From positions 66,224-130,223 of the forward strand of contig JBDTVZ010000003.1 of the NCBI GenBank assembly GCA_040006935.1: DNA of 64,000 nucleotides, in the 5' to 3' direction. A program made the translations under genes and the position numbers. This DNA is from Candidatus Dojkabacteria bacterium. GTDB lineage: Bacteria > Patescibacteriota > Dojkabacteria > J137. The notes beneath the pieces were generated by a model. The model saw only the letters and a program-made list of their open reading frames with translations, made no database searches and had not been told where the DNA came from. Positions 3,251 to 53,104 of the stretch are shown here, piece by piece. The stretch's first letter is position 1; each line of letters begins with the position of its first letter.

Positions 3251-3366
3251 AAGTAATTATAAGCCACACTACTCATTCACTCAGCATTTAATCCAGGCCG
3301 TGTTACAGCCTATTCAGCTCAGTGTCATTGTGAGACATCGTCGTAGTAATGGCACTGTTTAAACTA

Positions 3367-4125
3367 TTACTTAATAAAATATTTACCCAACCATTTTTTC
3401 ATAAACGGCACTTCCATAAACTTTGCCACACCATAGAAAGCAACATTTAGTTCGCCCCAACCAATTAAAGCAGAAATTGATATTTCTAGGATTTTTCCTG
3501 ATGGAACATTGGTAATTGAGTATAGAATAATTCTGCTATTTAGTATTTCCCAAGCCAAACCTGTTAACAAACCAGCTAAAAATGGAGCAAAGAAAGTTAA
3601 AAATTTACCTTGAAATGTGTCAGAAAGAAAATTTTCTACATCAAAGATTGATAAAATAGACCCTGTTAACAGCGTAGCAAAAAATAGAAGAATAGGTATA
3701 AACCAAACATCAACCACTCCTCCTCTCTGGAGTTGATAAATTGAGACAATTATTGTTCCGATTACACTTACAATAAGAAGAAGCCAATAAACTATTTTAT
3801 TAGGATTTGGTAATTTGATAAAGCTCAATTTTCTAAGTTGACCCTCTACCCACAGTGTTGTTTCTAGAATAAAAGGCACAGAAACTATATAAGCAAAGAT
3901 TAAGATGAAAATTAAGTATTCCGCAGGAGCAGAAATAGGATATTCCCAAAGTTTAAACATTAAAACACCAAAAATATCTGAAATTATTCCTCCGACAAGC
4001 CCTAAAATAATACTTAGAAATACATAGTTCTTGTAACTAAACTTCTTAAAGAATAATTTCTGAGAGATAAATGCCCAGCCAAACAAATATACTGCATGAA
4101 GAAAAACGATAAAAGGGTATTCCAT
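3367..4125 (-). CDS. Polytopic membrane protein, unknown function
   Basis: Multiple hydrophobic helices; no motif recognised. Confidence 0.4.
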   Translation of the reverse strand: MEYPFIVFLHAVYLFGWAFISQKLFFKKFSYKNYVFLSIILGLVGGIISDIFGVLMFKLWEYPISAPAEYLIFILIFAYIVSVPFILETTLWVEGQLRKLSFIKLPNPNKIVYWLLLIVSVIGTIIVSIYQLQRGGVVDVWFIPILLFFATLLTGSILSIFDVENFLSDTFQGKFLTFFAPFLAGLLTGLAWEILNSRIILYSITNVPSGKILEISISALIGWGELNVAFYGVAKFMEVPFMKKWLGKYFIK

Positions 4126-5405: not shown

Positions 5406-5699
5406 ATGATCAAAAGTTTAAATGTAAGGATAAGTAACTATAATACTAAATTACTTATGTCTAAAATGCAAGTAAAATATGTACTCAGGTGGGCTTTAAA
5501 TGATCACAGAGTTTGAACTTTTGAAAATACTCTACCACATTAGTATATATTTAAAGGGTTAGAATGAGTAATAAGTTAATACAATTCAACTAGCCCTGAA
5601 ATTCACCCTCTCTCTTTTAAGCTGCCGACCGGCAAGGCAGATTTCAATGACACTTATTCTTTTAAGAATTGATTATTGATGTTTGGTATTGGTTATTCC

Positions 5700-7194: not shown

Positions 7195-8253
7195 TTAAAT
7201 TCCAGAATATTTTTCTGTTCTAAAGTCTATTATGCTTAAGTTATTATACTCTCCACTAGAAATTAGTACATTTAAATCTCTAACCTGATCTAATGCTGGC
7301 CTACGTGGATAAAACAAAAGTTGTTTCCCTGTATCAGTATCAAATACAAAAGTATCCCCTGCTCGGTAATCAATATCAATAATATTTAATGGTATTTTCA
7401 AAATAAGTTCTTGTATTTTTAGAACGAACTCTATGCTTGTTTCGCTCACCTCCTCCCCTATTCCCGTTTTATCCAGAAGCCTTACTAAATCTGAGTAGAC
7501 TGATTGTGATACTACGGCTTGTGCTTGTTCAAAATATGCATTTATTTTTCCTTGTGCTTCACTTTTAAACATATCTATATATCTGTCTTTATCTTCTTTT
7601 GTTGCTTTAGACCAAAGATTCCCTGCGTCAATATTAGCTTGGTCTTCTTCAAATCTTTTTTTAACTGAAGGATCGTCTTCTTTAAGTTTTCCGTCTAGAG
7701 CTGATGATTCTTGTCCTGTGAGTTCTATTTTTGGTGCTGGCAAACTTCCCACTTCCATTGCCCTATTATTTAGAAGGCTTATTTTGTCCTTTGAAACTAC
7801 TACTACTACTGGAGTACTTTCTACAATATCTACTTTTATTAATCCTGTAATATCTTTAGAAACATATACGGCTAACACTTCTCCATACTTACTTTTTATG
7901 AGATTTTCTATTTCGCCAGGACGAATTTTTAAAATATTCTTACCCTTATAAACATCTAAAAGATTTAGAATATCTTTACTATCGACTCTAACAATACCTA
8001 CTATTTGAATATCTTGGACTAAAAATATTTTATCATTATTAAATAAGAAGATTCCGAATCCAGCGATAATGATAACTATTGCCATTAGGAAATATTTTTT
8101 AAGCGATCCTATTTTATCTGCAACATCTCCTGCCATATCTTTCAGAAGCAGTTTTCTCCTTTGCTTTTTATAATCAATTTTTGGTTCTTTATTCCTTCCA
8201 AACATACAACTCATATTACACGAGCATGAAGATGAAGTCATGATGAATATCAT
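7195..8253 (-). CDS. ftsQ: Cell division protein FtsQ/DivIB-like (POTRA domain)
   Basis: A short basic cytoplasmic tail and a single TM are followed by a POTRA-like beta region. The position upstream of ftsA-ftsZ matches the usual gene order. The listed ORF extends to 8358, but those extra 35 codons lie in a GC-rich repeat element and are probably not translated. Confidence 0.55.
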   Translation of the reverse strand: MIFIMTSSSCSCNMSCMFGRNKEPKIDYKKQRRKLLLKDMAGDVADKIGSLKKYFLMAIVIIIAGFGIFLFNNDKIFLVQDIQIVGIVRVDSKDILNLLDVYKGKNILKIRPGEIENLIKSKYGEVLAVYVSKDITGLIKVDIVESTPVVVVVSKDKISLLNNRAMEVGSLPAPKIELTGQESSALDGKLKEDDPSVKKRFEEDQANIDAGNLWSKATKEDKDRYIDMFKSEAQGKINAYFEQAQAVVSQSVYSDLVRLLDKTGIGEEVSETSIEFVLKIQELILKIPLNIIDIDYRAGDTFVFDTDTGKQLLFYPRRPALDQVRDLNVLISSGEYNNLSIIDFRTEKYSGI

Positions 8254-8462
8254 ATGTACAGGCCTGCCCTGAGCGTAGCCGAAGGGCTGAGATGTTTGGA
8301 GTATTTGCCCAGCTGTAAAATCCCCCGGCACTCCTGCCTGCCTCTGGCATGGTTGCAAAGGGAGAATTCCTCCTTTTTAAAGGAGGTGGCCAGCTTTAGC
8401 TGGACGGAGGATTTCTACCGCACCGAAAGCATGACAAAGATTTTGTGCGGTCCTTATTGGTA
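8254..8462. repeat. GC-rich repeat element copy A (core ctcctgcctgcctctggcatgg at 8331-8352) with several internal hairpins
   Basis: The segment is strongly GC-rich against the AT-rich genome. It shares the CTTGCCTGCC..TGGCATGG core with copies at 10303-10343 and 15535-15563. It contains the hairpins cctccttt/aaaggagg, ccagct/agctgg and ccgcac../gtgcgg. Confidence 0.6.
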
Positions 8463-8463
8463 A

Positions 8464-8490
8464 TAAAAAAAAAGACCCTCACGGGTCTTC
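8464..8490 (-). terminator. rpsO rho-independent terminator (bidirectional)
   Basis: The hairpin agaccc-tcac-gggtct is followed on the - strand by nine T. Confidence 0.7.
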
Positions 8491-8509
8491 TTTAAAATTC
8501 TTAATATAC

Positions 8510-8800
8510 TTAAATTCCTAATTCTTTAAAAGTTTTAGTAACTTTAGCTTGATCTTCAACAGTTCTTTCTACATATTTAATCAATCTTCTTCTGTCTCCA
8601 ACCAACTTCAATAGACCTCTTCTAGAGTGCTTATCTTTTTTATTAGTCTTTAAATGACTAGATAAATACTTAATTCTCTCTGTTAACAAAGCGATTTGTA
8701 CAAGAGGAGATCCAGTATCTTTATCATGTTCTCCATACTTCTTAATTAACTCAGTTTTTTGAGTTTTATCTTTGTTGAAATTTGACTTCTTACTTGACAT
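8510..8800 (-). CDS. rpsO: 30S ribosomal protein S15
   Basis: S15 signature [38 protein letters not shown]. Confidence 0.88.
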
Positions 8801-8854
8801 ATCTTAATTCGGAATTAAATAATGGTTATATTATAGTACAAAAGACTTTATTAA

Positions 8855-9061
8855 TCAATCAGGTAAGTCATCTTTATCTTCCCCTCTATTTGTTAACCTT
8901 GAAAACAGATTTTGAGCGCTGTCTTTAAAAGTTAAGGCCGATTTCACTGTTGAACGTACTGCTTTGTAATCTGAAAGAGTAAGGTCAGTAAGCTCTGATA
9001 CGTTCTGCACAGGTTTTCTAACATCCTCCAACATTGCTGTGACTTTGTTAATAAGCCTCAT
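8855..9061 (-). CDS. Hypothetical small protein (a hydrophobic stretch is encoded in-frame upstream with no ATG)
   Basis: ORF only. The frame stays open upstream and encodes ILLTLAIAFAIAGISFAI, so a non-ATG start is possible. Confidence 0.3.
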   Translation of the reverse strand: MRLINKVTAMLEDVRKPVQNVSELTDLTLSDYKAVRSTVKSALTFKDSAQNLFSRLTNRGEDKDDLPD

Positions 9062-9269
9062 TATTGCGAAGGAAATCCCAGCTATTGCGAAAGCAATGGC
9101 TAGAGTTAGTAATATTTTTACAAAATCGTCTGTAGGTATAATATTTTTTAGGATAATATGTTAAATTCTCTCTTATTATTATATTTTTTTAATCTTAATT
9201 AAGCAAGGAATTAATTGACAAAATAGCCAATTTAGCTATAATTATTCTACTTACGTTAACTACTCGCAT

Positions 9270-9656
9270 ATGCATAAAAATAAAGATGGAAAAGTAACAG
9301 CGTCACTTACTGAAGTTAAAAATAGAACGGGAGACATTTTTGCACTTGTTGATGAATTCGGAGAGGTATATTTAACTTCGTATAATAAGGTTAGGTATAA
9401 GATTACCAAAACAGATATTGCTGATTATATTGATCTGAAGGATTCTCCTACTAAAACAGAAAAGAAAGAAGTTAAGAAAGTTATTAAACAGGATAAATCG
9501 ATCACACAGGAAGAATTAAGACCAAAAGTTGTGACAGAAGGGTCTGCTGTGAACAATGTTTTAAGCAAAATATCTAAGGTTTTACCTTGGGATAGAGATA
9601 ATAAAATGGAAAGAAAATTTGCAGATAATGCAAGAAGTCCTTTAGTTAGTAATTAA
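9270..9656 (+). CDS. Phd/YefM-family type II antitoxin-like protein with an extended charged C-terminus
   Basis: The N-terminus SLTEVKNRTGDIFALVDEFGEVYLTSYNKVRYKI fits the Phd/YefM fold pattern. It sits immediately upstream of a PIN-domain gene. Confidence 0.5.
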   Translation: MHKNKDGKVTASLTEVKNRTGDIFALVDEFGEVYLTSYNKVRYKITKTDIADYIDLKDSPTKTEKKEVKKVIKQDKSITQEELRPKVVTEGSAVNNVLSKISKVLPWDRDNKMERKFADNARSPLVSN

Positions 9657-9673
9657 ATATTAATGTTAATAAT

Positions 9674-10048
9674 ATGAAAGAAGTTGTATTAGTTGATACT
9701 GGAATAATTGTAGAGTATCTAAGAACAGGCAAAGGCGTACTCCCCTCTGCTTATGAGAGCTATGAGATGGTAATATCTGCATCAACTTACACTGAGCTTT
9801 TAGCAAGTAAAACTTTTGAAGATGAGGCTTTAAAAAAAGAAGTGTTGGAATTTTGTGAGAAGTACTTCTCTATTAAGGATGTTACAGCTGAAATTGCTAT
9901 GAAGGCAGCTGAGGTTTTAAGAAATGCAGAGGTAACTCTTGCAACTGCATATATTGCAGCAACAGCCTTGGAGCATAATATTAAAGTATTAACTGATGAT
10001 CAGAAGAAATTTAGTGAAGTCTCAGGACTTATCTTCATGAATATGTAA
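9674..10048 (+). CDS. vapC: PIN-domain ribonuclease toxin (VapC-like)
   Basis: The N-terminal VLVDTGIIVEYL carries the PIN first acidic residue. A conserved C-terminal LTDDQKF Asp is present. Size is about 124 aa. Confidence 0.6.
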   Translation: MKEVVLVDTGIIVEYLRTGKGVLPSAYESYEMVISASTYTELLASKTFEDEALKKEVLEFCEKYFSIKDVTAEIAMKAAEVLRNAEVTLATAYIAATALEHNIKVLTDDQKKFSEVSGLIFMNM

Positions 10049-10071
10049 CTAGATTATTGAACAAGATTTTA

Positions 10072-10094
10072 AACCGGTGGAAGCCGGTTTTTTA
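10072..10094 (+). terminator. Rho-independent terminator after the toxin-antitoxin operon
   Basis: aaccgg-tggaag-ccggtt followed by tttttt. Confidence 0.6.
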
Positions 10095-10161
10095 TTTCAA
10101 AGTCATCTGCTATAATTGCATGCATTTGATATCGCGAAACTTTTCGAACATGTTATCAGAG

Positions 10162-10235
10162 TCGGAGAGTAGTTCAATTGGCTAGAATACGCGTTTTGGG
10201 AACGCGGGGTTGCAGGTTCGAGTCCTGTCTCTCCG
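10162..10235 (+). tRNA. tRNA-Pro (anticodon UGG)
   Basis: A manual cloverleaf fold works. The acceptor CGGAGAG/CUCUCCG pairs. The D-arm is GUUC..GAAU. The anticodon stem is CGCGU/ACGCG with loop UUUGGGA (U33, G37). The T-arm is GCAGG-UUCGAGU-CCUGU. The discriminator is A and no CCA is encoded. It is flanked by an extended inverted repeat, atcagagtcggagag...ctctccgactctgat. Confidence 0.8.
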
Positions 10236-10420
10236 ACTCTGATAATAGTAGTTCAACCCGCCTGTCCGCGCAGTCGGGCAGGTTGGTTAGAATACGCGTT
10301 TTGCTTGCCTGCCTCCTTGGCTGCCTTGGGCATGCTGGCATGGGGAACGCGGGGTTGTCGAGTCCTGTCTCTCCGATTTATTAACAATTCAGTCCTGTTT
10401 GCCTGCCAAAGGCAGGTTTC
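10236..10420 (+). pseudogene. Decayed tRNA-Pro paralog carrying GC-rich repeat element copy B, followed by a ttgcctgcc-aaa-ggcagg hairpin
   Basis: Direct alignment to the intact tRNA-Pro shows the D-loop segment agtagttcaa..ttggttagaatacgcgtttt. A 26-nt GC insert (cccgcctgtccgcgcagtcgggcagg) sits in the D-loop. A 40-nt insert (gcttgcctgcctccttggctgccttgggcatgctggcatg, 10303-10342) lies between anticodon-loop positions 34 and 35. There is a 5-nt deletion in the T-stem. The 3' end tcgagtcctgtctctccga is kept but no complementary 5' acceptor exists. Confidence 0.6.
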
Positions 10421-10434
10421 TTCGATTTATTATT

Positions 10435-11046
10435 ATGAAAGATTTAGATACACAGGTTGAAAATCCTATAAGTATTATTGATAGCACGATAGAAGAAGCA
10501 TTGCCAGCCTACTTTGAAGGATTGAATATCCCCGAAGGTGCAATGAGTAAACTTGCAGCAACGCTCTTAGGTTATGCGAATAGCATTGTATATAAGCGTA
10601 GTGAAGATTATTCTGAAAGCCTTGCGTGTGGGGACTTTGCCAATGTCGCTACTTACCTTCTCGATTCTTTCTCCACGCATTACGGTTTAGACCAAGCCCT
10701 CATAGCTAAGATTATGATTTTCTATGAAGACGAGAGTTCGCATGCGAGAGTAAGTATGTATAACCCAGTTACGGGTAATTTTCTTTACTTTGAACCTCAA
10801 TCTCGTAGAGGAACAACCCTTTTACTAAAGAGTGAATCACTTAAAAAAGACCCTTATGACGCAATTCAAGATTTAGCAACCATCGCTAGTTCCCATATCG
10901 ATAAGATGCGTCAAGTTAAAGAGGTAAAATTCTATACAGATAAAGCTCGTTATGCGACTGAAAGAATAAATAAGAAAGGTAATAGATTGAATACATTCCC
11001 ATCCACAATACAACTTGATTCGAAACTCGCTGAGATTTTTGGATAA
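10435..11046 (+). CDS. Hypothetical protein
   Basis: ORF 10399..11046. The likely start is MKDLDTQ at 10435, because the upstream part overlaps the GC repeat. No motif recognised. Confidence 0.35.
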   Translation: MKDLDTQVENPISIIDSTIEEALPAYFEGLNIPEGAMSKLAATLLGYANSIVYKRSEDYSESLACGDFANVATYLLDSFSTHYGLDQALIAKIMIFYEDESSHARVSMYNPVTGNFLYFEPQSRRGTTLLLKSESLKKDPYDAIQDLATIASSHIDKMRQVKEVKFYTDKARYATERINKKGNRLNTFPSTIQLDSKLAEIFG

Positions 11047-11214
11047 GGTTTGATTAGGCATAAATGTACTGCCGCTTTTCGACCGGCTCCGGATTAAGTA
11101 TATAGTTTAAAGTTTTAAGCTCTAAACAATAGGTTCACATTCTATCCTGTTAGTTTGATTTAAGTTTACACACTTCTCTATTTGCTATAATCTAAGATGG
11201 ATTAAGCAAATCAA

Positions 11215-13008
11215 ATGAAATCTTCACGTTTAAGTTTAAAACAAAATTTCTCCACTCTAGTTTGGATAACAAAACTTGCCTTCTCCTTTAATAGAATCAA
11301 TTACGTTTTGTTAGGTATTTCTACGATTATTCAAGACAATATTCCTATCGCTACTTCTTTTTTAGCTGCCTTAATTATTGAGAAACTTGCAAATGGAGTG
11401 CGTACTTTTAATGACGAAATAATTACTCTGTTAGTTCTTATCTTCCTTACTGGTTTCATATCTAATTATATAAATAGTTTTAATCGTTATTTAACAGTGC
11501 GGTTTAATCAGGCATGGGAATTGAGAGCTTGGAATGTATTCTTGAACAAGACCTCGAGCTTAGACTTTCAACATCTAGAAAGCCCTGAGTATAGTCTTCT
11601 CATGCACAAGGTAAAAGAAACTGTAAATTGGAGAGGAAGCATTGTTGCACAAATTGTTCCAGAAGCAATTTCAGGATTTATTGGAATAATTCTGATTGCT
11701 GGAATTTTTATATCAATCAATCCAATATTTATAATCCTTATATTAATTCCGGAAATATTTCGATTTGTAATTAACAAGAAGTATGGGTTTGATTTATTTT
11801 CAATTTGGGATTCCCATGGCGAAACAAAACACCATGCATGGCATGCACAGGATTCCCTAGAAAAAACTGATGTTTTAAGAGAAGCTAAAATATATTCTTT
11901 CACGGTTAGCATACTTTCAAGATACAAAAGCGAAGTAGGTAAATTTATGAGCGAATCTTTAAAAAAGCTTAATCAGAGATATGCTCTCATAGGAATAGTT
12001 ACATTTTTTGATGTTATGATTTTAGTTTCTATTCAGATCTGGCTGATTCTACAAGTATTTGCTCAAATCATAAATATTGGCTCATATACATTCTATTTGG
12101 GAAGTATTACTACTGCATCAGATGCTTTTAATAGATTACAAATATCACTCTCTTCTCTACTTGAGCAACTTCCTTTTGTAGACGATTTTAGAAAATATTT
12201 AGAAATGGAAGATTTAGTAATTAAACCTGAAAATCCAGTAAAGATTTTACAAACAGCACCTAGAATTGAATTTCAAAATGTTTCGTTTAAATATCCAAAT
12301 TCTGAAGAATATGTCCTTAAAGATGTAAGCTTTACGATTGAACCGGGAGAAAAAATTGCATTAGTTGGAGAAAATGGTGCAGGTAAGACCACTCTTATTA
12401 AATTACTCGCGAGATTTTATGACGTCTCAGATGGAGAAATATTAGTTAATGATATTAATATTAGAGAAATTGACTTAGCTAGTTATTACAAACTTTGGGG
12501 AGTTCTATTTCAGTCTTTTGCAAAGTTATGGTTTTCTATACGGGAAAATATTGGAATTGGCAATACCGAAGATATTAATAACATGGAATTAATAAAAGAT
12601 GCTGCGAGAAAAGCAGATGCAGAAGAATTTATTAATAAACTTCCTATAAAATACGAGACTTTACTAAGCAAAGATTTTAAGAATGGAACCGACTTATCTG
12701 GAGGTCAATGGCAAAAATTAGGAATTGCTAGAGCAATGTTTGCAAATCCTAAATTAATTGTTCTAGATGAACCTACATCCGCCTTAGATGCGTTAGCCGA
12801 AGCAGAAGTATTCGAAAGTATTAATGAACTATCAAAGAACTCCACTGTTCTGGTAATTTCCCATAGATTTGCGACAGTGAGAAATGCTAATAGGATTTTA
12901 GTTTTAAAAGATGGGAAATTATTAGAACAAGGAACTCACAAAGAACTTTTGGAAAATGATAACCTCTATGCACAAATGTTTAACGAACAGGCTAAGGGTT
13001 ATTTATAA
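11215..13008 (+). CDS. ABC transporter, fused permease/ATP-binding protein (exporter type)
   Basis: Six N-terminal TM helices. Walker A GENGAGKTTL, ABC signature LSGGQWQKLGIARA, and Walker B LIVLDEPTSALD. Confidence 0.85.
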   Translation: MKSSRLSLKQNFSTLVWITKLAFSFNRINYVLLGISTIIQDNIPIATSFLAALIIEKLANGVRTFNDEIITLLVLIFLTGFISNYINSFNRYLTVRFNQAWELRAWNVFLNKTSSLDFQHLESPEYSLLMHKVKETVNWRGSIVAQIVPEAISGFIGIILIAGIFISINPIFIILILIPEIFRFVINKKYGFDLFSIWDSHGETKHHAWHAQDSLEKTDVLREAKIYSFTVSILSRYKSEVGKFMSESLKKLNQRYALIGIVTFFDVMILVSIQIWLILQVFAQIINIGSYTFYLGSITTASDAFNRLQISLSSLLEQLPFVDDFRKYLEMEDLVIKPENPVKILQTAPRIEFQNVSFKYPNSEEYVLKDVSFTIEPGEKIALVGENGAGKTTLIKLLARFYDVSDGEILVNDINIREIDLASYYKLWGVLFQSFAKLWFSIRENIGIGNTEDINNMELIKDAARKADAEEFINKLPIKYETLLSKDFKNGTDLSGGQWQKLGIARAMFANPKLIVLDEPTSALDALAEAEVFESINELSKNSTVLVISHRFATVRNANRILVLKDGKLLEQGTHKELLENDNLYAQMFNEQAKGYL

Positions 13009-13023
13009 ATTAGTTAAAATAAT

Positions 13024-13443
13024 ATGAAGGAGATTTATAAAGTTAAATTAGTATCACTAGTTGTACTCGAAAAGAACAATCAGATTCTGTTAATTAGGCG
13101 TTTGAATACTGGATGGGAAGACGGAAAGTATACTGTCCCGTCTGGACATTTAGAGGAAGGTGAAAAACCTTTAGAAGCAGCAGTGAGAGAGACAAGGGAA
13201 GAAGTTGGGGTTGAATTAAACACAGATGACTTGAAACTTGTGCATGTAGATTTTTTCGATAATTACATTCATCTATATTTTAAGTGTTCTAAATGGTCGG
13301 GAGAACCACAAATCATGGAACCCAATAAATGCGATGATATTTTATGGGCAAGTTATAATGATTTACCAGAAAACCTTGCTGGCCATGGACATGAAACATT
13401 GAGAGCCATAGGTGAGAATATATTATTTTCTGAATATGACTAA
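13024..13443 (+). CDS. NUDIX hydrolase
   Basis: Nudix box GHLEEGEKPLEAAVRETREEVGVEL. Confidence 0.8.
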   Translation: MKEIYKVKLVSLVVLEKNNQILLIRRLNTGWEDGKYTVPSGHLEEGEKPLEAAVRETREEVGVELNTDDLKLVHVDFFDNYIHLYFKCSKWSGEPQIMEPNKCDDILWASYNDLPENLAGHGHETLRAIGENILFSEYD

Positions 13444-13451
13444 ATTAATTT

Positions 13452-14084
13452 ATGAAGCTCACTCTCTTCTCACAAAATATTACTGAAAAACATATTAATA
13501 AGTTAGAGACCTATTTTCACAAACCACTGGCTAAAGTTAAATTTCTATATATAAATACTCCCGGTAATTACAAACCATATAAATCTGAATGGATGATAAA
13601 AAGTGAAAGAAAGTGGCAAAATATTTTTCCTAAATTTCAAGAATTCGATATCGAAAGGGCTTATAGAGTTGATAAAAATTTCGATTTCAAAACTTATTTC
13701 GAATCTTTCGATTTTATATTTATAAGTGGTGGGAATGTTTTTGTACTTTCATACTGGATGGAAAAAACAGGGTGTAGAGATATATTAAAAAAGTTAGTCG
13801 AAGAAGGAAAGGTTGTATACGGAGGAGAATCTTCTGGGGCTGTTTATGTATACAAAGACCTAGAAATTTATAGCGCAGCAGATGAGCCTAAAGATGCTCC
13901 AGCAGTAGTAAATGATGGTTTGGGTTTTATAGATTTTGCACCAATTCCCCATTGGGAGAATGAGAAATTTCAAAGTATTTTGGAAGATATAAAAAAACAA
14001 TTTGAAAGTAAAAATGTGACAACTTATACAATCGAGGACAATCAAGCTTTATTTATTGCTACAGATAAAGTTCAAATTATTTAA
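13452..14084 (+). CDS. Peptidase S51 (dipeptidase E-like) family protein
   Basis: FISGGNVFVL and the GESSGA nucleophile-elbow motif are typical of S51/PepE. Confidence 0.5.
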   Translation: MKLTLFSQNITEKHINKLETYFHKPLAKVKFLYINTPGNYKPYKSEWMIKSERKWQNIFPKFQEFDIERAYRVDKNFDFKTYFESFDFIFISGGNVFVLSYWMEKTGCRDILKKLVEEGKVVYGGESSGAVYVYKDLEIYSAADEPKDAPAVVNDGLGFIDFAPIPHWENEKFQSILEDIKKQFESKNVTTYTIEDNQALFIATDKVQII

Positions 14085-14099
14085 AATTATTTTTTTAAC

Positions 14100-14366
14100 A
14101 TGGAAGCAAAAACCGAAACACAAACTGCATCGCAACCAGAAAAACAAATTGAATATAAACCTGCTCTTTTGACAGAGTGGCAGGGTAAACTTGAAGGCAA
14201 GAATGTCACTGCGAATATTAACGGTAATATTGTAAAAGGTTCTGTAAAACAAATTATGATCTCGCAGACCTTCCCTAAAATTCTTATGGCTTTAATTCGA
14301 TCCCTAGACGGGAAGAGTTATATTGCATACGACTTAGACAAAGTTACAGTTGATGAGGTAATTTAA
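14100..14366 (+). CDS. Hypothetical small protein
   Basis: ORF only. Confidence 0.3.
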   Translation: MEAKTETQTASQPEKQIEYKPALLTEWQGKLEGKNVTANINGNIVKGSVKQIMISQTFPKILMALIRSLDGKSYIAYDLDKVTVDEVI

Positions 14367-15370
14367 TCTATATACGCGAAAGTTATTGTCGGCGTTTGGC
14401 CTAAGTAACCAATTTTATATTCCTCAATCTTATAATTTGGAAAGTTCCTACTTAGATACTTACTCACTATTTCGGGATTAGAGCTTATAAGACCTATCCC
14501 TCCATTGATCTCTAGGATTCTCCTATATTCATTTATTATGCCGTTGTATAAGGAGTTAATATCATCAATTCTTATTTGTTTACCCCAAGGTAAATTAGAA
14601 ACTGCGATATCGAATTGTCTAGTAAATTTAGTATGTGAAGCATCCTCCAAGTACAATTTAAAATCCTGATATCCAACTTTTGCTAGATTTTTCTTAGTTA
14701 TCTCCACTCTACTACTAAGAATATCCCCTCCAGAAACTTTCAGACCCTGATTGAACCCCTCACATAAAAAAGTTCCACTTCCACATAAATTATCTACTAG
14801 AGTTTTTGCATCAACTTTGCTTTTTAGAAAAGTAATCATAGCTGCCGCTATTGTTGGCCTTATACTTCCAAATTGTGACATATGTTCATACTCTCTTTGA
14901 TATAAACTTTTTGGGAATATTTTTAATAATACAGTTGCATTCTCTCCTTCCAGTGCAACTTTAACATCAAAGTTTGAATGATCTAAAGGAGAATATGAAA
15001 AGCCTAATATCTTAGTAAGCTTATCCGAAAACTGAGATTTGATTGAATCTTGTGAATAATCTTTATTTTTATAAACACTTGCTGTAATTGAAAAGAACGC
15101 TTTGATTTTTCTAATCCCTTTAATCCACTCAATGGCTTCAGAAAAATTCTCTTTGGTTAAAAGATTAATTATCGTTGTAATATTTGCACTTAATATTAAG
15201 ATTGACAAATCATCGACTGTTTTCAGATGGGCAAGTTGTGTAGTATCACCTAAAAAATCAAACTCCACATGTTTTTGCCTGCAACTTATGTTTGAAACTC
15301 CTTCAAGTTGCCTAATTTCTTCTGCTGAGATCTCTTCTATTCCTTTTACAACACTGGCAATAATTTTCAT
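14363..15370 (-). CDS. THUMP-domain RNA (guanine-N2) methyltransferase-like protein
   Basis: SAM motif LCGSGTFLCEGF. The catalytic motif is SNLPWG (a (D/N)PP(Y/F/W)-type). An N-terminal THUMP-like region is present. Confidence 0.6.
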   Translation of the reverse strand: MKIIASVVKGIEEISAEEIRQLEGVSNISCRQKHVEFDFLGDTTQLAHLKTVDDLSILILSANITTIINLLTKENFSEAIEWIKGIRKIKAFFSITASVYKNKDYSQDSIKSQFSDKLTKILGFSYSPLDHSNFDVKVALEGENATVLLKIFPKSLYQREYEHMSQFGSIRPTIAAAMITFLKSKVDAKTLVDNLCGSGTFLCEGFNQGLKVSGGDILSSRVEITKKNLAKVGYQDFKLYLEDASHTKFTRQFDIAVSNLPWGKQIRIDDINSLYNGIINEYRRILEINGGIGLISSNPEIVSKYLSRNFPNYKIEEYKIGYLGQTPTITFAYID

Positions 15371-15459
15371 GGTTAGATTATACTACCACAACGCAATACC
15401 TAAATTAAGAAGGATGAAAGTCTAGTGAAAAGATTCTACTGTTACACCCAGTCTTGCGG

Positions 15460-15487
15460 GAATGTTACGTAATTTTACGTAACATTC
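15460..15487. promoter_or_regulatory. Perfect 28-bp palindrome GAATGTTACGTAA-TT-TTACGTAACATTC, a putative operator
   Basis: Seen directly: 13-bp perfect arms, a 2-nt spacer and two TTACGTAA cores. It lies in the upstream region of the THUMP methyltransferase, next to the GC-rich element. Confidence 0.45.
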
Positions 15488-15500
15488 ACCTGTATTTGTG

Positions 15501-15641
15501 GTCATTGCGAGGAGGACTTATTGTGCCCTGCCCTGCTTGCCTGCCTTTGGCATGCTGGCATGGAGCGGAGTCGAAGGGTGGCAATCCCATTAGAAACCAA
15601 GTCCTTGGATTGCTTCTCAGTCTTAGACGGATCGCAATGAC
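15501..15641. repeat. GC-rich repeat element copy C, flanked by a 10-bp inverted repeat GTCATTGCGA/TCGCAATGAC; core gcttgcctgcctttggcatgctggcatgg at 15535-15563
   Basis: The GC-rich block shares the core with copies at 8331 and 10303. It is followed by agcggagtcgaagggtgg, which is also seen at 18806. A separate 26-nt perfect palindrome catgcctgactgc|gcagtcaggcatg lies at 15659-15684. Confidence 0.6.
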
Positions 15642-15722
15642 AACAAGAAATAGGCCGCCATGCCTGACTGCGCAGTCAGGCATGTAACACAGCTGGCGAT
15701 AATGTTGACTTCACAAGGGTAA

Positions 15723-16382
15723 TTAGCCTTTTTTATTAGCTTTCCATTCCTCTATCTCTGCATGATTCCCTGAAAGAAGAACTTCTGGAACTGTCCACTC
15801 TTCGCCTTCATCATTTTTGAAAGTACTTGGACGTGTGTATTGAGGATATTCGGGATTACCTTCTGTTGTTTCGTCTTGTAAAGATTCTTCACTTCCTAAA
15901 ACCCCTGGCATTAATCTTATTATAGAATCTAAAATCACCATCGAAGGTAGCTCTCCGCCAGACAAAACATAGTTTCCTATACTAATCTCTTCGTCAATTA
16001 AGTTTTCTACAATCCTATGATCAAAACCTTCGTAATGCCCACAAAGAATTACAACTCTATCAATTTCTTTAGAATATGTTTGTGCGAAAGTCTGATTCCA
16101 TTGCTTTCCTTTTGCACTCGTTAAGATTACTTTTGTTTTTGGATCTTTGTTTGGATAAACTCCAAGTGCTTTTAATGCGTTGTAAACAACTTCTAACTTT
16201 ATTAACATTCCTGGATTTCCACCAAAAGGTTTATCGTCAACGGTGTGGTGTTTATCTGTAGACCAATCTCGAAGATTATGAATATTTATTTTTACTAAAT
16301 TTTTTTCTTTTGCTCTTTTTACAATACTTTCGTTTAAGTACGAGTAGGAGTTTGGGAAAAGTGTAATTATGTCGAATTGCAA
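15723..16382 (-). CDS. trmD: tRNA (guanine37-N1)-methyltransferase TrmD
   Basis: MQFDIITLFP.., ILCGHYEGFDHR and SIGNYVLSGGELPSMVILDSIIRLMPGVLG are classic TrmD motifs. Confidence 0.92.
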   Translation of the reverse strand: MQFDIITLFPNSYSYLNESIVKRAKEKNLVKINIHNLRDWSTDKHHTVDDKPFGGNPGMLIKLEVVYNALKALGVYPNKDPKTKVILTSAKGKQWNQTFAQTYSKEIDRVVILCGHYEGFDHRIVENLIDEEISIGNYVLSGGELPSMVILDSIIRLMPGVLGSEESLQDETTEGNPEYPQYTRPSTFKNDEGEEWTVPEVLLSGNHAEIEEWKANKKG

Positions 16383-16521: not shown

Positions 16522-18732
16522 CTAAGAATCTAATTTCTCCAGCTTAGCGTACTCCATCATTAATTCTTTTTTCCCGTAAACTGGTCCGAAGTTGATGATC
16601 ACAATATCTGAATCTATATACTCTACTGTTCCTTTTCCAAAGTAATCATGCCTGACTTTATCACCAATACTTAAATCTACAGATGGTTTGTAAGGTTTAT
16701 CAATAGAAGAATCTGATGCTGCACTCCAACTTGTTTCGTAACCAATCGCTTCATCGTTTTGTAAATCTAAAATTGAATTATCAATGTCTTCAATAAATCT
16801 TGAAATTAGATTTCGTTGAGTCTTTCCAAAATATTTTCTGGACTTTGTGTACGTCATGAATAACTTTTTCTTTGCTCTTGTGATTGCAACATAAGCAAGA
16901 CGCCTTTCCTCTTCCATTTCGTGTTCGTCCATCATTGAGTTTGAATGTGGGAATAAATTTTCTTCCATTCCAACAACGAATACATATTCAAATTCCAATC
17001 CTTTTGCAGAGTGAATTGTCATTAACGTAACTGATTCTGACGAAACTTCTTTTTTACTAAAACTTTCTAATAAAGATATTTCTCCTAAGAAATTTTCCAA
17101 TGCTTCCTCTGGTTCTTGATCTTCAAATTTTGAAGCGAGTGAAATTAATTCTTTTAAGTTTTCAATTCTTGTTTCTCCTTCCGCAGTTCCGTCATCTAAC
17201 ATTTCTATATATTTTGTTTTTTCGAGAACAAGATTAATAAAGTCTATGATCTTCTTTTCTTTAGATTGTTTGATCAAATCCACAATCATTGATGCAAATG
17301 CTTTTAACTTCGGATTTATTCCGTCTTCCGTTTCCCGCTGACCGTTAACCTCGAGCAGGTATTGCAATGCACCCATGCCTTTCCCCTTGGCTAAAACTTC
17401 AAGATCCGTTGCGCTTTTATCTCCAATTCCTCTTCTCGGAGTATTTACCACTCTTTTAAAAGACGAATTATCCTTTGGGTTATAAATTAATCGAAGATAC
17501 GAAAGAATATCTTTAACCTCTTTTCTATCATAAAAACGAACTCCACCAACAATTTTATATGGAATATTATTTTGTAAAAATGCTTCTTCTAAAGTTCTTG
17601 ACTGTGCGTTTGTTCTATATAAAACTGCGAAATCATTAAATCCCTCTGGTGAATCTTTTTTTAATTTTTCAATTACTTCAGTTACATATAGCGCTTCATT
17701 CTCTTCGTTAAGTGCTTTGTACAAAACTATATTGTCTCCATTATCATTTTCTGTCCAAAGTTTTTTATCTTTTCTTCTTTTATTTTTTGAAATTACTTGA
17801 TGTGATGCTTCTAAAATCTTTTTTGTGGATCGGTAATTTTGTTCTAGTTTAATTACCTTTGCACTCGGGTAATCTTTTTCGAAGCTTAAAATGTTTTTAA
17901 TTGTTGCTCCTCTGAATGCGTAAATACTTTGATCGTCATCTCCAACACAACAAATATTTTTGTAATGCTCTGCCAACAATTTAATAATTGTATACTGAGC
18001 ATGATTTGTATCCTGGTATTCATCAACTAAAATATATTTAAATGCTTTTTGTAAATTAGTTAAAACTTCTTTGTTGTTTTTTAAAAGCTGAACTGTAAGC
18101 ATTAATAAATCATCGAAATCTACTGCGTTACTTTCTTTTAAAATTTTTTGATACTCTGGATAAACTCTGGCAACAGCTTGTTGAAAATATCCTTGTGCGG
18201 ATCCTGAATATTCTTGATGTGTAATTAATTCGTTTTTTGCAGAAGAAATATAGGAATGTATTGCGTATGCATTAAATTCTTTTGTGGAAATTTTTGCTGC
18301 TTCCATTGCATCTTTTGTAATTGCAATTTGATCACTGGAATCGTAAATGATGAAATTTCTGTTAATCCCAACTAATTCACCATATTTTTTTAAAAGCTTT
18401 AAACAAATGGAATGAAAAGTTCCCATCCAAGGTAAGTTTTCAGTTTGTTTATTCTCTGATGACTGATTACTGATAACTGACAACTTTTTTATTCTCTCTT
18501 TCATTTCCTCAGCAGCTTTATTTGTGAAAGTCATTGCAAGGATATTCATTGGGCCAGCTAAACCAGAATCAAGAATGTAAGCAAGACGATAGGTTAAAAC
18601 TCTAGTTTTACCAGATCCCGCACCTGCTAAAACCAAGACTGGACCTTCTGTAGCCAGAACAGCTTCTTTTTGTGGTGGATTTAAGATGTCTAAATTAATC
18701 ATGGGAAATTCAAAAGATTCTTTGAATGTTAT
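16522..18732 (-). CDS. uvrD: ATP-dependent DNA helicase UvrD/PcrA
   Basis: Walker A AGAGSGKTRVLTYR and helicase motifs II-VI (DEYQDTN, VGDDDQSIY, QNYRST, VLYRTN). A C-terminal Tudor-like tail is present. The ORF extends to 18831, but the conserved N-terminus begins near MITFKE/MINLDILNPPQKEAV. Confidence 0.9.
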   Translation of the reverse strand: MTFKESFEFPMINLDILNPPQKEAVLATEGPVLVLAGAGSGKTRVLTYRLAYILDSGLAGPMNILAMTFTNKAAEEMKERIKKLSVISNQSSENKQTENLPWMGTFHSICLKLLKKYGELVGINRNFIIYDSSDQIAITKDAMEAAKISTKEFNAYAIHSYISSAKNELITHQEYSGSAQGYFQQAVARVYPEYQKILKESNAVDFDDLLMLTVQLLKNNKEVLTNLQKAFKYILVDEYQDTNHAQYTIIKLLAEHYKNICCVGDDDQSIYAFRGATIKNILSFEKDYPSAKVIKLEQNYRSTKKILEASHQVISKNKRRKDKKLWTENDNGDNIVLYKALNEENEALYVTEVIEKLKKDSPEGFNDFAVLYRTNAQSRTLEEAFLQNNIPYKIVGGVRFYDRKEVKDILSYLRLIYNPKDNSSFKRVVNTPRRGIGDKSATDLEVLAKGKGMGALQYLLEVNGQRETEDGINPKLKAFASMIVDLIKQSKEKKIIDFINLVLEKTKYIEMLDDGTAEGETRIENLKELISLASKFEDQEPEEALENFLGEISLLESFSKKEVSSESVTLMTIHSAKGLEFEYVFVVGMEENLFPHSNSMMDEHEMEEERRLAYVAITRAKKKLFMTYTKSRKYFGKTQRNLISRFIEDIDNSILDLQNDEAIGYETSWSAASDSSIDKPYKPSVDLSIGDKVRHDYFGKGTVEYIDSDIVIINFGPVYGKKELMMEYAKLEKLDS

Positions 18733-18794: not shown

Positions 18795-18825
18795 TAGGTG
18801 GCATGGTGAACGGAGTCGAACCATG
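18795..18825. repeat. GC-rich repeat fragment copy D (ggtggcatggtgaacggagtcgaaccatg), a hairpin with T-loop-like GGTTCGACTCC on the - strand
   Basis: It aligns to 15543-15575 (gctggcatggagcggagtcgaagggtgg). Its CATGGTGA...GTCGAACCATG ends match 31067-31132. Confidence 0.45.
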
Positions 18826-18851
18826 ACTCAAGAGCTGATATAATTCAGATT

Positions 18852-21555: not shown

Positions 21556-21615
21556 TGGAGAGGTGGCTGAGTGGTTGTCAGCCAGAGGCTGATCCGCCTT
21601 TGGCGGAAAAGTGCT
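21556..21615 (+). pseudogene. tRNA-Ser 5'-half duplicate with a 29-nt GC-rich D-loop insertion (tcagccagaggctgatccgcctttggcgg)
   Basis: ggagaggtggctgagtggttg and aaagtgctcgtct are identical to the intact tRNA-Ser 5' half at 21651. The insert lies between them and similarity ends after the anticodon stem. Confidence 0.6.
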
Positions 21616-21650
21616 CGTCTTGGGTCAAGGTAATATTATGCATGTAAATT

Positions 21651-21735
21651 GGAGAGGTGGCTGAGTGGTTGAAAGTGCTCGTCTCGAAAACGAGTGTTCC
21701 GCAAGGGATCGCAGGTTCGAATCCTGTCCTCTCCG
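21651..21735 (+). tRNA. tRNA-Ser (anticodon CGA), long variable arm
   Basis: Manual fold: acceptor GGAGAGG/CCUCUCC, anticodon stem CUCGU/ACGAG, loop CUCGAAA, variable arm GUUCCGCAAGGGAUC, T-arm GCAGG-UUCGAAU-CCUGU, discriminator G. Confidence 0.8.
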
Positions 21736-21752
21736 TAGAACTTAGTACGCAG

Positions 21753-21795
21753 TGAATCCTGCTTGCCTGCCGGAATGAAATGAAGGCAGGTCCTC
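21753..21795 (+). repeat. Duplicated tRNA-Ser 3' end (gaatcctg..tcctctccg) interrupted by the 29-nt element cttgcctgccggaatgaaatgaaggcagg
   Basis: Direct comparison with 21716-21735. The element carries the CTTGCCTGCC..GGCAGG hairpin, the same motif as the repeat family and the hairpin at 10395. Confidence 0.55.
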
Positions 21796-21825
21796 TCCGT
21801 TCTACTTTTCTGTTAAAATATTATC

Positions 21826-31066: not shown

Positions 31067-31132
31067 CATGGTGAGTCCTTCAATAAGCTCATGCAGATGC
31101 AGGCAAACACGACAAACTCTGTCGAACCATGA
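31067..31132. repeat. Long imperfect hairpin with CATGGTGA...GTCGAACCATGA ends, immediately downstream of argS
   Basis: Same termini as the 24-nt hairpin at 18801-18824; 7-bp terminal stem tcatggt/accatga. Confidence 0.4.
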
Positions 31133-31133
31133 G

Positions 31134-46683: not shown

Positions 46684-47478
46684 ATGACTTATTTTATCTG
46701 TAGAATTCCATTTGGAACTTCGGAATTAAAAATTAAAACCTTAAATGAAATTCCCGATTCTACCGCAGAGGAAATTTCATACTTTATAAATGCTTTTTAC
46801 AATGAGCTAAATCCTAATCTTGCAAATACTTCTGCATATAATTTTAATCATGGGCAAATAGGAATTCCTATTTTTTTGAAAAAAGAGTTTTTAGATTTTT
46901 TATCACAGCATCTGGAACTCGCAGCCGCTACTGAATTTGAATATCAACCTTTTAGTATCTTAGATCCTGATTTAGATTTGAATAGTAATTTGATAAGTGT
47001 AGATAAAAGATCACTTTCTGTAACGAAGAACGATGACATCTCTCTTGAAAGTCCAATAAATCGTAAACACTTTACGATAGATATTTTAAGTGACTTCTTA
47101 ATTAGAGAAAAAGCACTTTCTGATTTTTTAATTGTTTCCGACTCCGTATTCTTAGCCAGGGGAAAACATCCATGGGCTATTGATATTACAGACCATACAG
47201 TGCAGGATTTTACTTTAGAGATTAGAAACGAATCAGTTGTGATTGAACCAATGGAAGTGAAAACCATGAAAAATACTTTTGGTGTTATAGATGAAATCTC
47301 ACCAGTTCAGTATATTTTTATACAAGGCAAATATACAAATTTACCGAAGATAATAGGAACTATTGCGAAGAGAGAAAGGAGCTTAGGAGGTTTAAGTGAA
47401 GTTTCGAGAAAGTATGGAGTAACGATTCATGCTCTGGATAAAAATGATAAACTTACAACTTTTACACCCCGACATTAA
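46684..47478 (+). CDS. Hypothetical protein
   Basis: ORF only. Confidence 0.3.
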   Translation: MTYFICRIPFGTSELKIKTLNEIPDSTAEEISYFINAFYNELNPNLANTSAYNFNHGQIGIPIFLKKEFLDFLSQHLELAAATEFEYQPFSILDPDLDLNSNLISVDKRSLSVTKNDDISLESPINRKHFTIDILSDFLIREKALSDFLIVSDSVFLARGKHPWAIDITDHTVQDFTLEIRNESVVIEPMEVKTMKNTFGVIDEISPVQYIFIQGKYTNLPKIIGTIAKRERSLGGLSEVSRKYGVTIHALDKNDKLTTFTPRH

Positions 47479-48662
47479 AAACTCAAATTCGGTTCTCTAT
47501 CAATCTCACCAAATTCTTTTGGATCAAGATAAACTTCCTTATTATTTTTCATTCTTAACTCGTCATTCGTAATTATATTTGCAACGATTCCAATCATCGC
47601 TGCATTATCCCCAGTTAGCTTATTTGAATATGGAAACCTAAGTTTAATATTTTTATTTAAAGATTTCCTAATTAGTGACCTCAATTGCGTACTTGCAACA
47701 ACTCCCCCCCCTAGCCAAATTTCTTTAGGATTATAAATCTTGACAGCTTTCTCTAGCTTAAGAACAACTTGCATTAAAGCTGCATGTTCAAAAACTACAC
47801 ATAAATCTTTAATCGTTTCTGAGTTTAAATTACTTTCTCCAAATTTTGAAATGAAATCTCTGAAGGCTGTTTTTAAACCAGAATAACTAAAGTTTAAATC
47901 ACCAGAATGTTGCATGGGAATTGGAAGGTTATATTCTTTTTGTGAATGAATATTTACACCTTTTACAATTACGCTCTGATTTTTATTAATAATTTCTAAT
48001 TTAATATTTTTTCTATTCTCTTTAGCAAATTTTGAAATTGTTGGACCTGCTGGATAACCAAGGCCTAAAAACCTTCCACATTTATCAAAGCATTCACCAC
48101 AAGCATCGTCTACAGTTTCTCCAATTTTTTTATACTTTCCAAAATCTTCTACAAGAATAAATTCAGTATGACCTCCAGAAACAAGAACACCAATTGCTGG
48201 GAATTGAGGTATTACTGCCCTCTCCTTTAGGAGAGGAGGGACCGCTTGCGGTGGGTGAGGTAATTTAGAGTTTCTTTCTGCAAAAGCAGAAAGTAAATGT
48301 CCCTCCATATGGTTCACATTTACTAAAGGTTTACTATATTTCTCTGCAAGTTCTTTTGCTTTTTTAATTCCTACCTCTAACGCTATTGCTAATCCTGGAC
48401 CTTTTGTAACTGCTATTGAATCTATTTCTTCGATTGTTTTCCCAGATCTCTTTAATGCTTCAATTACAACTGAATCTATTCTTTCTTGATGAGCTAATTT
48501 TGCAATGGATGGAACTACTCCACCGTATTGTTTATGTAAATCAATTTGAGACGGTTGGAAGTTAGACAGAACTGTATTTCCTAGCAAAACTGCAACAGAA
48601 GTTTCGTCACAAGAAGTGTCGATGGCGAGGATCAAGTTTTGTTTTTCTGGTAGAATTTGCAT
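47475..48662 (-). CDS. tsaD: tRNA N6-adenosine threonylcarbamoyltransferase TsaD (Kae1/YgjD)
   Basis: N-terminal ILAIDTSCDETSVAV and metal-binding HMEGHLLSAF (HxxxH), then VLVSGGHTEF. An approximately 16-aa GC-encoded insert (LPHPPQAVPPLLKERAV) precedes the conserved IPQFPAIGVLVSGGHTEF block. Confidence 0.88.
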   Translation of the reverse strand: MQILPEKQNLILAIDTSCDETSVAVLLGNTVLSNFQPSQIDLHKQYGGVVPSIAKLAHQERIDSVVIEALKRSGKTIEEIDSIAVTKGPGLAIALEVGIKKAKELAEKYSKPLVNVNHMEGHLLSAFAERNSKLPHPPQAVPPLLKERAVIPQFPAIGVLVSGGHTEFILVEDFGKYKKIGETVDDACGECFDKCGRFLGLGYPAGPTISKFAKENRKNIKLEIINKNQSVIVKGVNIHSQKEYNLPIPMQHSGDLNFSYSGLKTAFRDFISKFGESNLNSETIKDLCVVFEHAALMQVVLKLEKAVKIYNPKEIWLGGGVVASTQLRSLIRKSLNKNIKLRFPYSNKLTGDNAAMIGIVANIITNDELRMKNNKEVYLDPKEFGEIDREPNLSF

Positions 48663-52992: not shown

Positions 52993-53002
52993 AGAATAAG
53001 CT

Positions 53003-53082
53003 GGACCGCCCACACCATGAATTACTTCCGGGGCGGTATGACCTCTCCCTAACCCTCTCCTTAAAAGGAGAGGGAATCGGAC
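53003..53082. repeat. GC-rich double hairpin (gaccgcc..ggggcgg and ccctctcc-ttaaaa-ggagaggg) downstream of holA
   Basis: The hairpin ccctctcc/ggagaggg is the same sequence as the in-frame insertion in tsaD (48218-48240). Confidence 0.5.
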
Positions 53083-53104
53083 CCTTCGTTTTCTCAAACC
53101 TTTA

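Follow-up and report, generated by a model that had tools for sequence, protein, structure and literature searches.

What are the short GC-rich sequences that recur in an AT-rich stretch of a Candidatus Dojkabacteria genome, and how did they reach their present positions? Genomes of the candidate phyla radiation (CPR, or Patescibacteria) are small and densely coded, and are usually described as repeat-poor. The stretch analysed here, called the window throughout, is 64 kb of contig JBDTVZ010000003.1; it has a GC content of 33%, contains the housekeeping genes for FtsQ, S15, TrmD, UvrD and TsaD, and is the source of all the element counts given below. An initial annotation had listed at least five copies of a GC-rich core and left it undecided between a mobile element, a structured RNA and a protein-binding site. 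Our results suggest that the CTTGCCTGCC...GGCATG sequences are probably insertion elements of this genome, GC-rich, very short at 16-40 nt, lineage-specific and non-autonomous, that are moved in trans.

The motif G(C/T)TTGCCTGCC occurs five times in the window and, together with one copy truncated at its 5′ end, defines a family of six. The copies begin at 8336, 10303, 10397, 15535 and 21761 on the + strand and at 31108 on the - strand, and the string TGCCTGCC is found five times between 8.3 and 21.8 kb, throughout on the + strand. A search for GYTTGCCTGCC, allowing up to one mismatch, returned five matches where 0.62 ± 0.78 were expected; none of 100 dinucleotide shuffles reached five. All six copies share the 5′ end G(C/T)TTGCC (truncated in copy A), whose longer form is G(C/T)TTGCCTGCC, and their 3′ end is GGCA(T)G, intact or decayed. 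Copies B and C agree at 27 of 28 positions, copy B differing from copy C in length by an internal tandem duplication of 12 nt, and an 11-mer is identical at four sites. A repeat search likewise paired 10312-10343 with 15532-15563 (91% identity over 32 nt), and with 8329-8360 at 66%. The GC content of the copies (47-69%, against 33% for the window) bears out the compositional contrast on which the initial annotation had remarked. Its list of copies fared less evenly, in that the core is real, lies where it was placed and is enriched over shuffles, but the list pooled at least three unrelated hairpin types.

Insertions were called by long-gap pairwise alignment against uninterrupted paralogues in the window. 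The intact tRNA-Pro(UGG) gene (10163-10236, + strand) provides the empty-site reference for a dead copy at 10247-10376 on the + strand, which covers tRNA positions 6-76 and has no counterpart at the sister loci described below. Aligned to the intact gene, the dead copy shows 63 matches and one mismatch (98%), a 5-nt deletion and two clean inserts of 26 and 40 nt. The longer insert is copy B (10303-10342, + strand, GCTTGCCTGCC[TCCTTGGCTGCC]TTGGGCATGCTGGCATG), placed in the anticodon loop at TTTT^GGGA, where ^ marks the junction. The shorter, insert F (10257-10282, + strand, 81% GC, CCCGCCTGTCCGCGCAGTCGGGCAGG), occupies the D-loop and is of another hairpin type. A second tRNA-Pro fragment, consisting of the 3′ end only (10388-10425, + strand), hosts the 19-nt copy D (10397-10415, + strand, GTTTGCCTGCCAAAGGCAG, TCCT^GT). 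Both this fragment and the bounds of copy D were placed by eye against the intact gene; alignment of the fragment gave 13 matches only and did not recover the insertion.

A similar arrangement surrounds the intact tRNA-Ser(CGA) gene (21651-21735, + strand), which again serves as the empty-site reference. Downstream, a tRNA-Ser 3′ fragment (21748-21800, + strand) carries copy E as a 29-nt insert (21761-21789, + strand, GCTTGCCTGCC..GGCAG) that forms a CCTGCC/GGCAGG hairpin and is joined at TCCT^GTCC. Copies D and E therefore occupy the same tRNA position, the homologous TCCT^GTC step of the tRNA-Pro and tRNA-Ser 3′ fragments. Upstream, a tRNA-Ser 5′ fragment (21557-21620, + strand), identical to the intact gene at 34 of 34 positions, is interrupted in its D-loop by the 30-nt insert G (21578-21607). 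This segment had been counted as a core copy at 21577-21606; it lacks the core and is a separate two-hairpin insert. ARAGORN and Rfam call the intact tRNA genes only and not the interrupted copies. We considered whether the interrupted copies might be tRNAs with an intron (group I or archaeal bulge-helix-bulge), the insert falling at 34/35-35/36, and rejected this because the host copies are truncated, with no 5′ acceptor strand and with 5 nt missing from the T-stem.

Two copies interrupt hairpins of a second repeat family, characterised by a GAGCGNAGNCGA loop. Copy C (15535-15562, + strand, 28 nt, GCTTGCCTGCCTTTGGCATGCTGGCATG, CCCT^GAGC) sits at the stem/loop junction of such a hairpin. The empty counterpart of its host is the canonical unit GCCTGCC-CT-GAGCGTAGCCGA-AGG-GC at 8262-8287 (+ strand), and the interrupted unit spans 15527-15579 (+ strand). 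Alignment of 8263-8286 with 15527-15578 leaves a 28-nt insert that is copy C itself, the uninterrupted form reading CCTGCCCT^GAGCG(T/G)AG(C/T)CGAAGGG with ^ at the insertion point. The sixth copy, a degenerate one with one mismatch (31075-31108, - strand, GTTTGCCTGCATCTGCATGAGC...), follows GTCGT^ within a hairpin loop whose stem is CATGGT/ACCATG. Its host (31067-31133, + strand) matches the uninterrupted hairpin CATGGT-GAACGGAGTCGA-ACCATG at 18802-18826 (+ strand), with a 34-nt insert corresponding to the sixth copy. The remaining copy, A (8336-8351, + strand, 16 nt, GCCTGCCTCTGGCATG), is the 5′-truncated one; it lies in the rpsO-ftsQ spacer between TCCT^ and ^GTTG and has no empty site.

Four of the six insertions (B, C, E and 31075-31108) are thus supported by alignment, and D by eye. 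The base preceding the copy is T in every case, within CCT in four and within TTT and CGT in the other two; the base following it is G in five copies and T in one. Target-site duplications were found at none of the six copies, and this includes the four insertions whose empty sites are known. The copies are inserted where hairpin-forming DNA is single-stranded: in the anticodon loop, at the junction that follows the T-stem in truncated tRNAs, and in the loops of repeat hairpins. The window contains the products of copy-and-paste of a defined short sequence, inserted precisely and without duplication at T^G (mostly CCT^G) into loops or loop-stem junctions, and nested within other repeats. Since intact and interrupted tRNA paralogues adjoin one another, they provide unusually clean before and after sites that define the duplication-free T^G junction, and with this junction defined the transposition chemistry becomes testable.

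We then compared the window with syntenic loci from sister genomes: L081 and L085 (GCA_047445235.1; UvrD 83% identical), L082 and L083 (UvrD 81%), L084 (UvrD 70%) and L086. Neither TGCCTGCC nor GGCATGG is present in sister loci L081-L086, and blastn-short likewise found no copies there. The absence of copies at syntenic loci indicates that the elements are young and lineage-specific and are not conserved structured RNAs. The sister tRNA-Pro gene is single, abuts its neighbour and is free of dead copies, and the spacers are shorter or different. Upstream of uvrD, the window has some 65 bases more than the sisters, including the 18802 hairpin. The rpsO-ftsQ spacer measures 94 nt in L084 and 240-350 nt elsewhere, cannot be aligned, and contains GC-rich hairpins that differ from genome to genome. 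A GC-rich difference of four residues within UvrD (17321-17359) was too small for interpretation.

Several other features of the tRNA loci emerged from this comparison. The intact tRNA-Pro gene lies within an extended 15-bp stem at 10155-10243, in which ATCAGAGT+CGGAGAG pairs with CTCTCCG+ACTCTGAT; the sisters have no such extension. Between tRNA-Pro and an ABC-transporter gene there is a block of about 980 bp (10237-11214), comprising the two dead tRNA-Pro pieces and an orphan open reading frame (ORF), that the sisters lack and that may have been left by an island targeted to tRNA. The 203-residue product of this ORF (10435-11046) has neither a Pfam nor a PHROG match, and four other ORFs are also without PHROGs matches. 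In L082 (7385-7470), and also in L083, a 17-nt stretch copied from the tRNA-Ser 5′ end lies about 115 nt upstream of the real gene, beside a GAGCGTAGTCGAAGG hairpin. The presence of this copy in L082 implies that partial duplication of tRNA-Ser is older than the split from the window lineage.

The copies are embedded in a wider population of GC-rich hairpins. Perfect hairpins containing GC number 17 in the window, against 4.8 ± 2.2 in Markov simulations, a 3.5-fold excess. Copy C is nested two levels deep, within its host hairpin and within a strongly folded 151-nt composite (15496-15646; z = -4.2 relative to shuffles) that is closed by a 15-bp inverted repeat (TTGTGGTCATTGCGA / TCGCAATGACAACAA). 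A 10-bp inverted repeat, GTCATTGCGA/TCGCAATGAC at 15501 and 15632, had been read as the bounds of copy C in the manner of a miniature inverted-repeat transposable element (MITE); the repeat is present, and reaches 15 bp if one mismatch is allowed (15496-15510 / 15632-15646), but it bounds the composite and not the core. No target duplication flanks the 15-bp repeat. The composite terminus TCATTGCGAGGAG occurs three times in the Shapirobacteria locus L077, once as an inverted doublet, and a literature search by sequence for the composite termini found nothing. The L077 hairpin repeat, (T)CATTGCGAGGAG...CGACGAAGCAATC, shares its termini with the composite; it is present both as an inverted doublet resembling a REPIN and as a single copy directly after trmD (3903-4017, 7655-7690). 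Nearby in the window are H, a perfect 26-bp palindrome (15659-15684, CATGCCTGACTGCGCAGTCAGGCATG, z = -5.4) that shares a CGCAGTC centre with insert F, and, upstream of the composite in the rlm-trmD spacer, a perfect AT-rich palindrome with 12-bp arms (15460-15487, GAATGTTACGTA-ATTT-TACGTAACATTC) that may be an operator or a terminator.

The proposal that each copy forms a GC hairpin proved only partly correct. D, E, G and H fold clearly better than shuffled sequences (z = -2.6 to -5.4, with -2.7 for E and -4.2 for G; with F included the range is -1.6 to -5.4), but the 40-nt copy B (z = -0.4) and copy C (z = -1.8) do not. Nor did a match to a known rRNA or non-coding RNA account for the core: Rfam 15, applied to the whole window at the gathering threshold, returned three tRNAs only and no family for the elements, and relaxing the threshold to E <= 10 on 8150-8520 and 15350-15760 produced only noise. 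RNase P-like strings suspected by eye in 15380-15720 are backed by no Rfam model.

Among the matches listed, searches beyond the Dojkabacteria gave no further members of the core family. The single match to the 22-nt core in the Joint Genome Institute (JGI) metagenome collection was a chance coding match (FAWGMLAWM) on a 52% GC contig. Among the viral-contig matches listed for GCTTGCCTGCC..GGCAKG, the mean GC content was 59% and there was no bias towards a flanking T, and we judged them a coincidence driven by the search anchors; one recurring group among them codes for motif IV of C5-cytosine methyltransferases (GGFPCQPYSMAGKR). The reverse complement of the B/C core (CCATGCCAG...GGCAGGCAAGC) resembles motif IV DNA of these enzymes with frame-breaking indels (L249, L260, L321, L325, L256), a resemblance that we also regard as coincidental.

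How might such short sequences move? An enzyme encoded elsewhere would act in trans to copy or move the elements, the likeliest candidate being an HUH/Y1-type single-stranded DNA transposase of the IS200/IS605-RAYT kind, and movement would probably take place as single-stranded DNA. The REP-associated Y1 transposase (TnpA-REP) cuts single-stranded DNA beside REP hairpins, at C^T and TGCC^TGAT, while IS608-type elements act on single-stranded DNA of the lagging strand, and HUH/Y1 enzymes make no duplications (PMC3333891). The 5:1 strand bias of the copies fits an action on lagging-strand or extruded single-stranded DNA, though it is not significant. Elements of this kind would persist only where insertion is harmless, as in dead tRNA fragments, spacers and other repeats. 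On this view they are just one among several families of GC-rich hairpins, which build up and nest within the small number of non-coding spacers in the genome.

Several observations weigh against this interpretation. There are six copies only, all within one 64-kb window, divided between the strands in a proportion that does not reach significance, and the JGI collection yielded no true copy of the 22-nt core and hence no independent replication. The 28/40-nt core folds no better than shuffles, the terminal complementarity of the copies is limited to 5-6 bp (CTGCC/GGCAG), and the position of the junction is ambiguous by one G. Neither a transposase nor an integrase was found among the ORFs of the window, which were read by eye, ten of them (7.2-20.6 kb) also being searched against Pfam, and the copy ends (G(C/T)TTG... 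/ ...GGCA(T)G) carry none of the GTAG/CGTC tags of REPs. Finally, the dense inserts in a dead tRNA that is 98% identical to the intact gene may reflect gene conversion or integrase scars.

This last possibility can be generalised: the dead tRNA pieces would be duplications of integrase attachment sites and the GC-rich inserts the joined ends of deleted islands, comparable to solo long terminal repeats. The anticodon loop and the T-arm, where inserts are found, are indeed the classical sublocations of integrase crossover; a lineage-specific block of about 980 bp that the sisters lack lies directly downstream of tRNA-Pro, and the partial tRNA-Ser 5′ copy is also found in the sister L082. However, the element is present in hairpins unrelated to tRNA (15535, 31108) and in a spacer (8336), its targets have only Y-T^G in common and not the core of seven or more nucleotides that integrases need, no integrase was seen in the window by the ORF survey described above, and the orphan ORF matches no phage family. 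We therefore consider integrase scars an unlikely origin for the family. Similarly improbable, in our assessment, is that the copies are functional RNA hairpins (terminators, mRNA stabilisers, processing signals or small RNAs) kept by selection. D and E do form stable hairpins, and a short way downstream of tRNA-Pro a T-rich tract follows D; the 15496-15646 composite has a strong fold; and E. coli REPs have secondary roles of this sort (PMC3733652). Against this, the copies are not conserved at the orthologous spacers of sisters with 81-83% UvrD identity, they match no Rfam family, their orientation relative to flanking genes is mixed, and several lie inside non-functional tRNA fragments. Moreover, a terminator scan that recovered the rpsO and PIN-gene terminators picked out none of the family copies, the T-rich tail being confined to D.

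It could also be argued that there is no family at all, and that low-complexity GC or CTG-type runs arose by slippage or hairpin-templated repair, or by misassembly of a metagenome-assembled genome. C(C/T)TG repeats abound in the core (CCTG CTTG CCTG CC), 12 nt are tandemly duplicated in copy B and the contig does come from a metagenome assembly. Yet an 11-mer identical at four sites and the 27/28 identity of B and C cannot arise independently, there is no local AT-rich template for GC-rich sequence, comparison with the tRNA paralogues shows the inserts to be precise, and analogous hairpin islands together with a partial tRNA copy appear in independently assembled sister genomes. We give this explanation very little credence and retain insertion by mobile elements as the probable one.

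The hairpins that host copy C and the sixth copy have a much wider distribution than the elements themselves. In the window this second family, a short stem with a loop GA(G/A)CG-N-AG-N-CGA, is found at 8262-8287, 15563-15579 and 18802-18826. The segment at 18795-18825, which the initial annotation had taken for a partial core copy, has only TGGCATGG in common with the core and otherwise belongs here, with the loop GA(G/A)CGNAGNCGA; the hairpin lies in the segment of about 65 nt missing from the sister uvrD-upstream spacers. The motif GAGCG.AG.CGAAGG has five matches in 1.36 Mb of unrelated loci (window included), compared with a mean of 0.05 for 1,500 composition-matched control motifs: one each in the Dojkabacteria locus L082 (7426-7441), an anammox planctomycete (L046) and an Armatimonadota metagenome-assembled genome (L053), and two in the window (8271 and 15563). 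A looser motif also matches L077 and position 18808 of the window. At least 120 viral loci (L088-L207) match as well, on contigs of 31-72% GC and sometimes in tandem arrays. Among the matches listed (135 viral), 79% have complementary flanks of at least 4 bp, and 29 of 124 distinct flanked matches listed have the extended left flank CCTG(C/T)C. The unit (R)GCCTG(C/T)C-CT-GAGCG-N-AG-Y-CGA-AGG-G thus recurs across unrelated bacterial phyla and viral contigs, with stems that co-vary. With crude ORF calling, no gene family lay beside the GAGCGNAGNCGAAGG unit in more than 13 of the 120 viral loci among the matches listed.

The bacterial hairpin unit has no Rfam family, and a literature search by sequence gave only the consensus of Bpu, a 36-bp element of Cycas and Ginkgo mitochondria (AAGGTTATCCCTTTCCTGAGCGTAGCGAAGGGAAGG; PMC8297867). 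The second-family hairpins have the same architecture as Bpu and a near-identical core, CCTGAGCGTAGC(C)GAAGGG (PMC8297867), a stem flanking a GAGCG-N-AG-(N)-CGA loop being present at all three window positions named above. The likeness concerns these host hairpins only, and not the CTTGCCTGCC core; furthermore, Bpu ends in direct repeats of AAGG and its stem is 8 bp long, whereas the bacterial units have one extra loop base. A bolder interpretation, which we regard as doubtful, would see two layers of one unrecognised phenomenon: a widespread (R)GCCTGYC-CT-GAGCGNAGYCGA-AGG hairpin, and CPR-specific mini-elements for which the single-stranded loops of these hairpins, and those of tRNA-shaped DNA, are the homing targets. 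The first layer would be a hairpin with a conserved loop of 11-12 nt, common to many bacterial phyla, phage-like contigs of 31-72% GC and, as Bpu, gymnosperm mitochondria, and such a distribution would imply a common and very old machinery that mobilises or recognises it. If this were true, dead tRNA copies would act as sinks, and insertion of single-stranded DNA targeted to hairpin loops would be a general force on the tiny spacers of reduced genomes. A host-hairpin motif that spans bacterial phyla, viral contigs and cycad mitochondria deserves a study of its own.

Other GC-rich hairpins stand apart from both families. Isolated examples lie in spacers or at gene junctions at 3324-3355, 5600-5650, 52995-53095 and 57348-57365, and include GTCATTGTGAG..., a CCCTCTCC hairpin and CCCCTCTTCAGAGGGG. 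One GC-rich segment of two hairpins (48213-48263, - strand) lies in frame inside tsaD (47475-48662), where it corresponds to 11-12 extra residues (the LPHPPQAVPPLLKERAV region) in a variable loop, relative to the closest orthologues. An intergenic hairpin similar to the CCTCTCC/GGAGAGG hairpin of this segment lies at 53053-53074. Miniature hairpin elements, if active, would contribute to spacer turnover, to rearrangement at tRNA loci and, as the tsaD case illustrates, to new protein loops.

The core family resembles several known systems without coinciding with any of them. The REPs and REPINs of Proteobacteria, associated with RAYT, are similarly GC-rich imperfect palindromes of 20-40 nt that lie in spacers and are nested or paired into larger hairpins, and they too lack target duplications, and they are proposed to move in single-stranded form through an HUH Y1 enzyme that cleaves at a short site next to the hairpin (PMC3333891, PMC3733652). 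The present elements differ in having no GTAG/CGTC tag (as defined in PMC3733652), in that the B/C core is a poor palindrome and no RAYT is seen within 64 kb, and in their host, a CPR bacterium of 33% GC; the copy number here comes from 64 kb. Comparison with MITEs gives a mixed answer: the MITE-like option of the initial annotation is favoured in a broad sense, with insertions relative to empty sites, conserved ends, a T^G junction and absence from the sisters, but there are no terminal inverted repeats beyond CTGCC/GGCAG (5-6 bp of complementarity) and no target-site duplication. The miniature elements derived from IS200/IS605 (PATEs) likewise insert without duplication 3′ of a short specific sequence, a fixed tetra- or pentanucleotide in IS200/IS605-type elements, into single-stranded DNA and possibly with strand bias. 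In agreement with this, all six copies, a small sample, follow a T, and four follow CCT, without duplication. PATEs, in contrast, exceed 100 nt and have distinct left- and right-end hairpins, while the elements described here are 16-40 nt long with at most one hairpin, and no TnpA was identified. Since the window has no transposase, the copies have no REP tags and the B/C hairpin is poor, we assign the family to none of REP, MITE and PATE, but describe it as working like them.

Two further systems share its genomic setting. Rickettsia palindromic elements (RPE) likewise inhabit an AT-rich reduced genome, and their insertion sites include RNA genes as well as protein genes, where they lie in frame (compare tsaD 48213-48263), but they are 100-150 bp long and fall into families with a defined consensus, and the core family was not seen inside a functional gene. 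The GC clusters of yeast mitochondria are GC-rich hairpin elements of 30-50 nt in a very AT-rich genome; they are polymorphic, nested, located near tRNA genes and sometimes inside genes. The present elements are comparable in being GC-rich and hairpin-forming in an AT-rich host, polymorphic between relatives, nested and situated beside tRNA genes, although GC clusters are elements of a eukaryotic organelle, include classes with flanking A+T/AG repeats and show no sequence similarity to them. The family is a fresh case of selfish hairpin DNA of the REP, GC-cluster and RPE kind.

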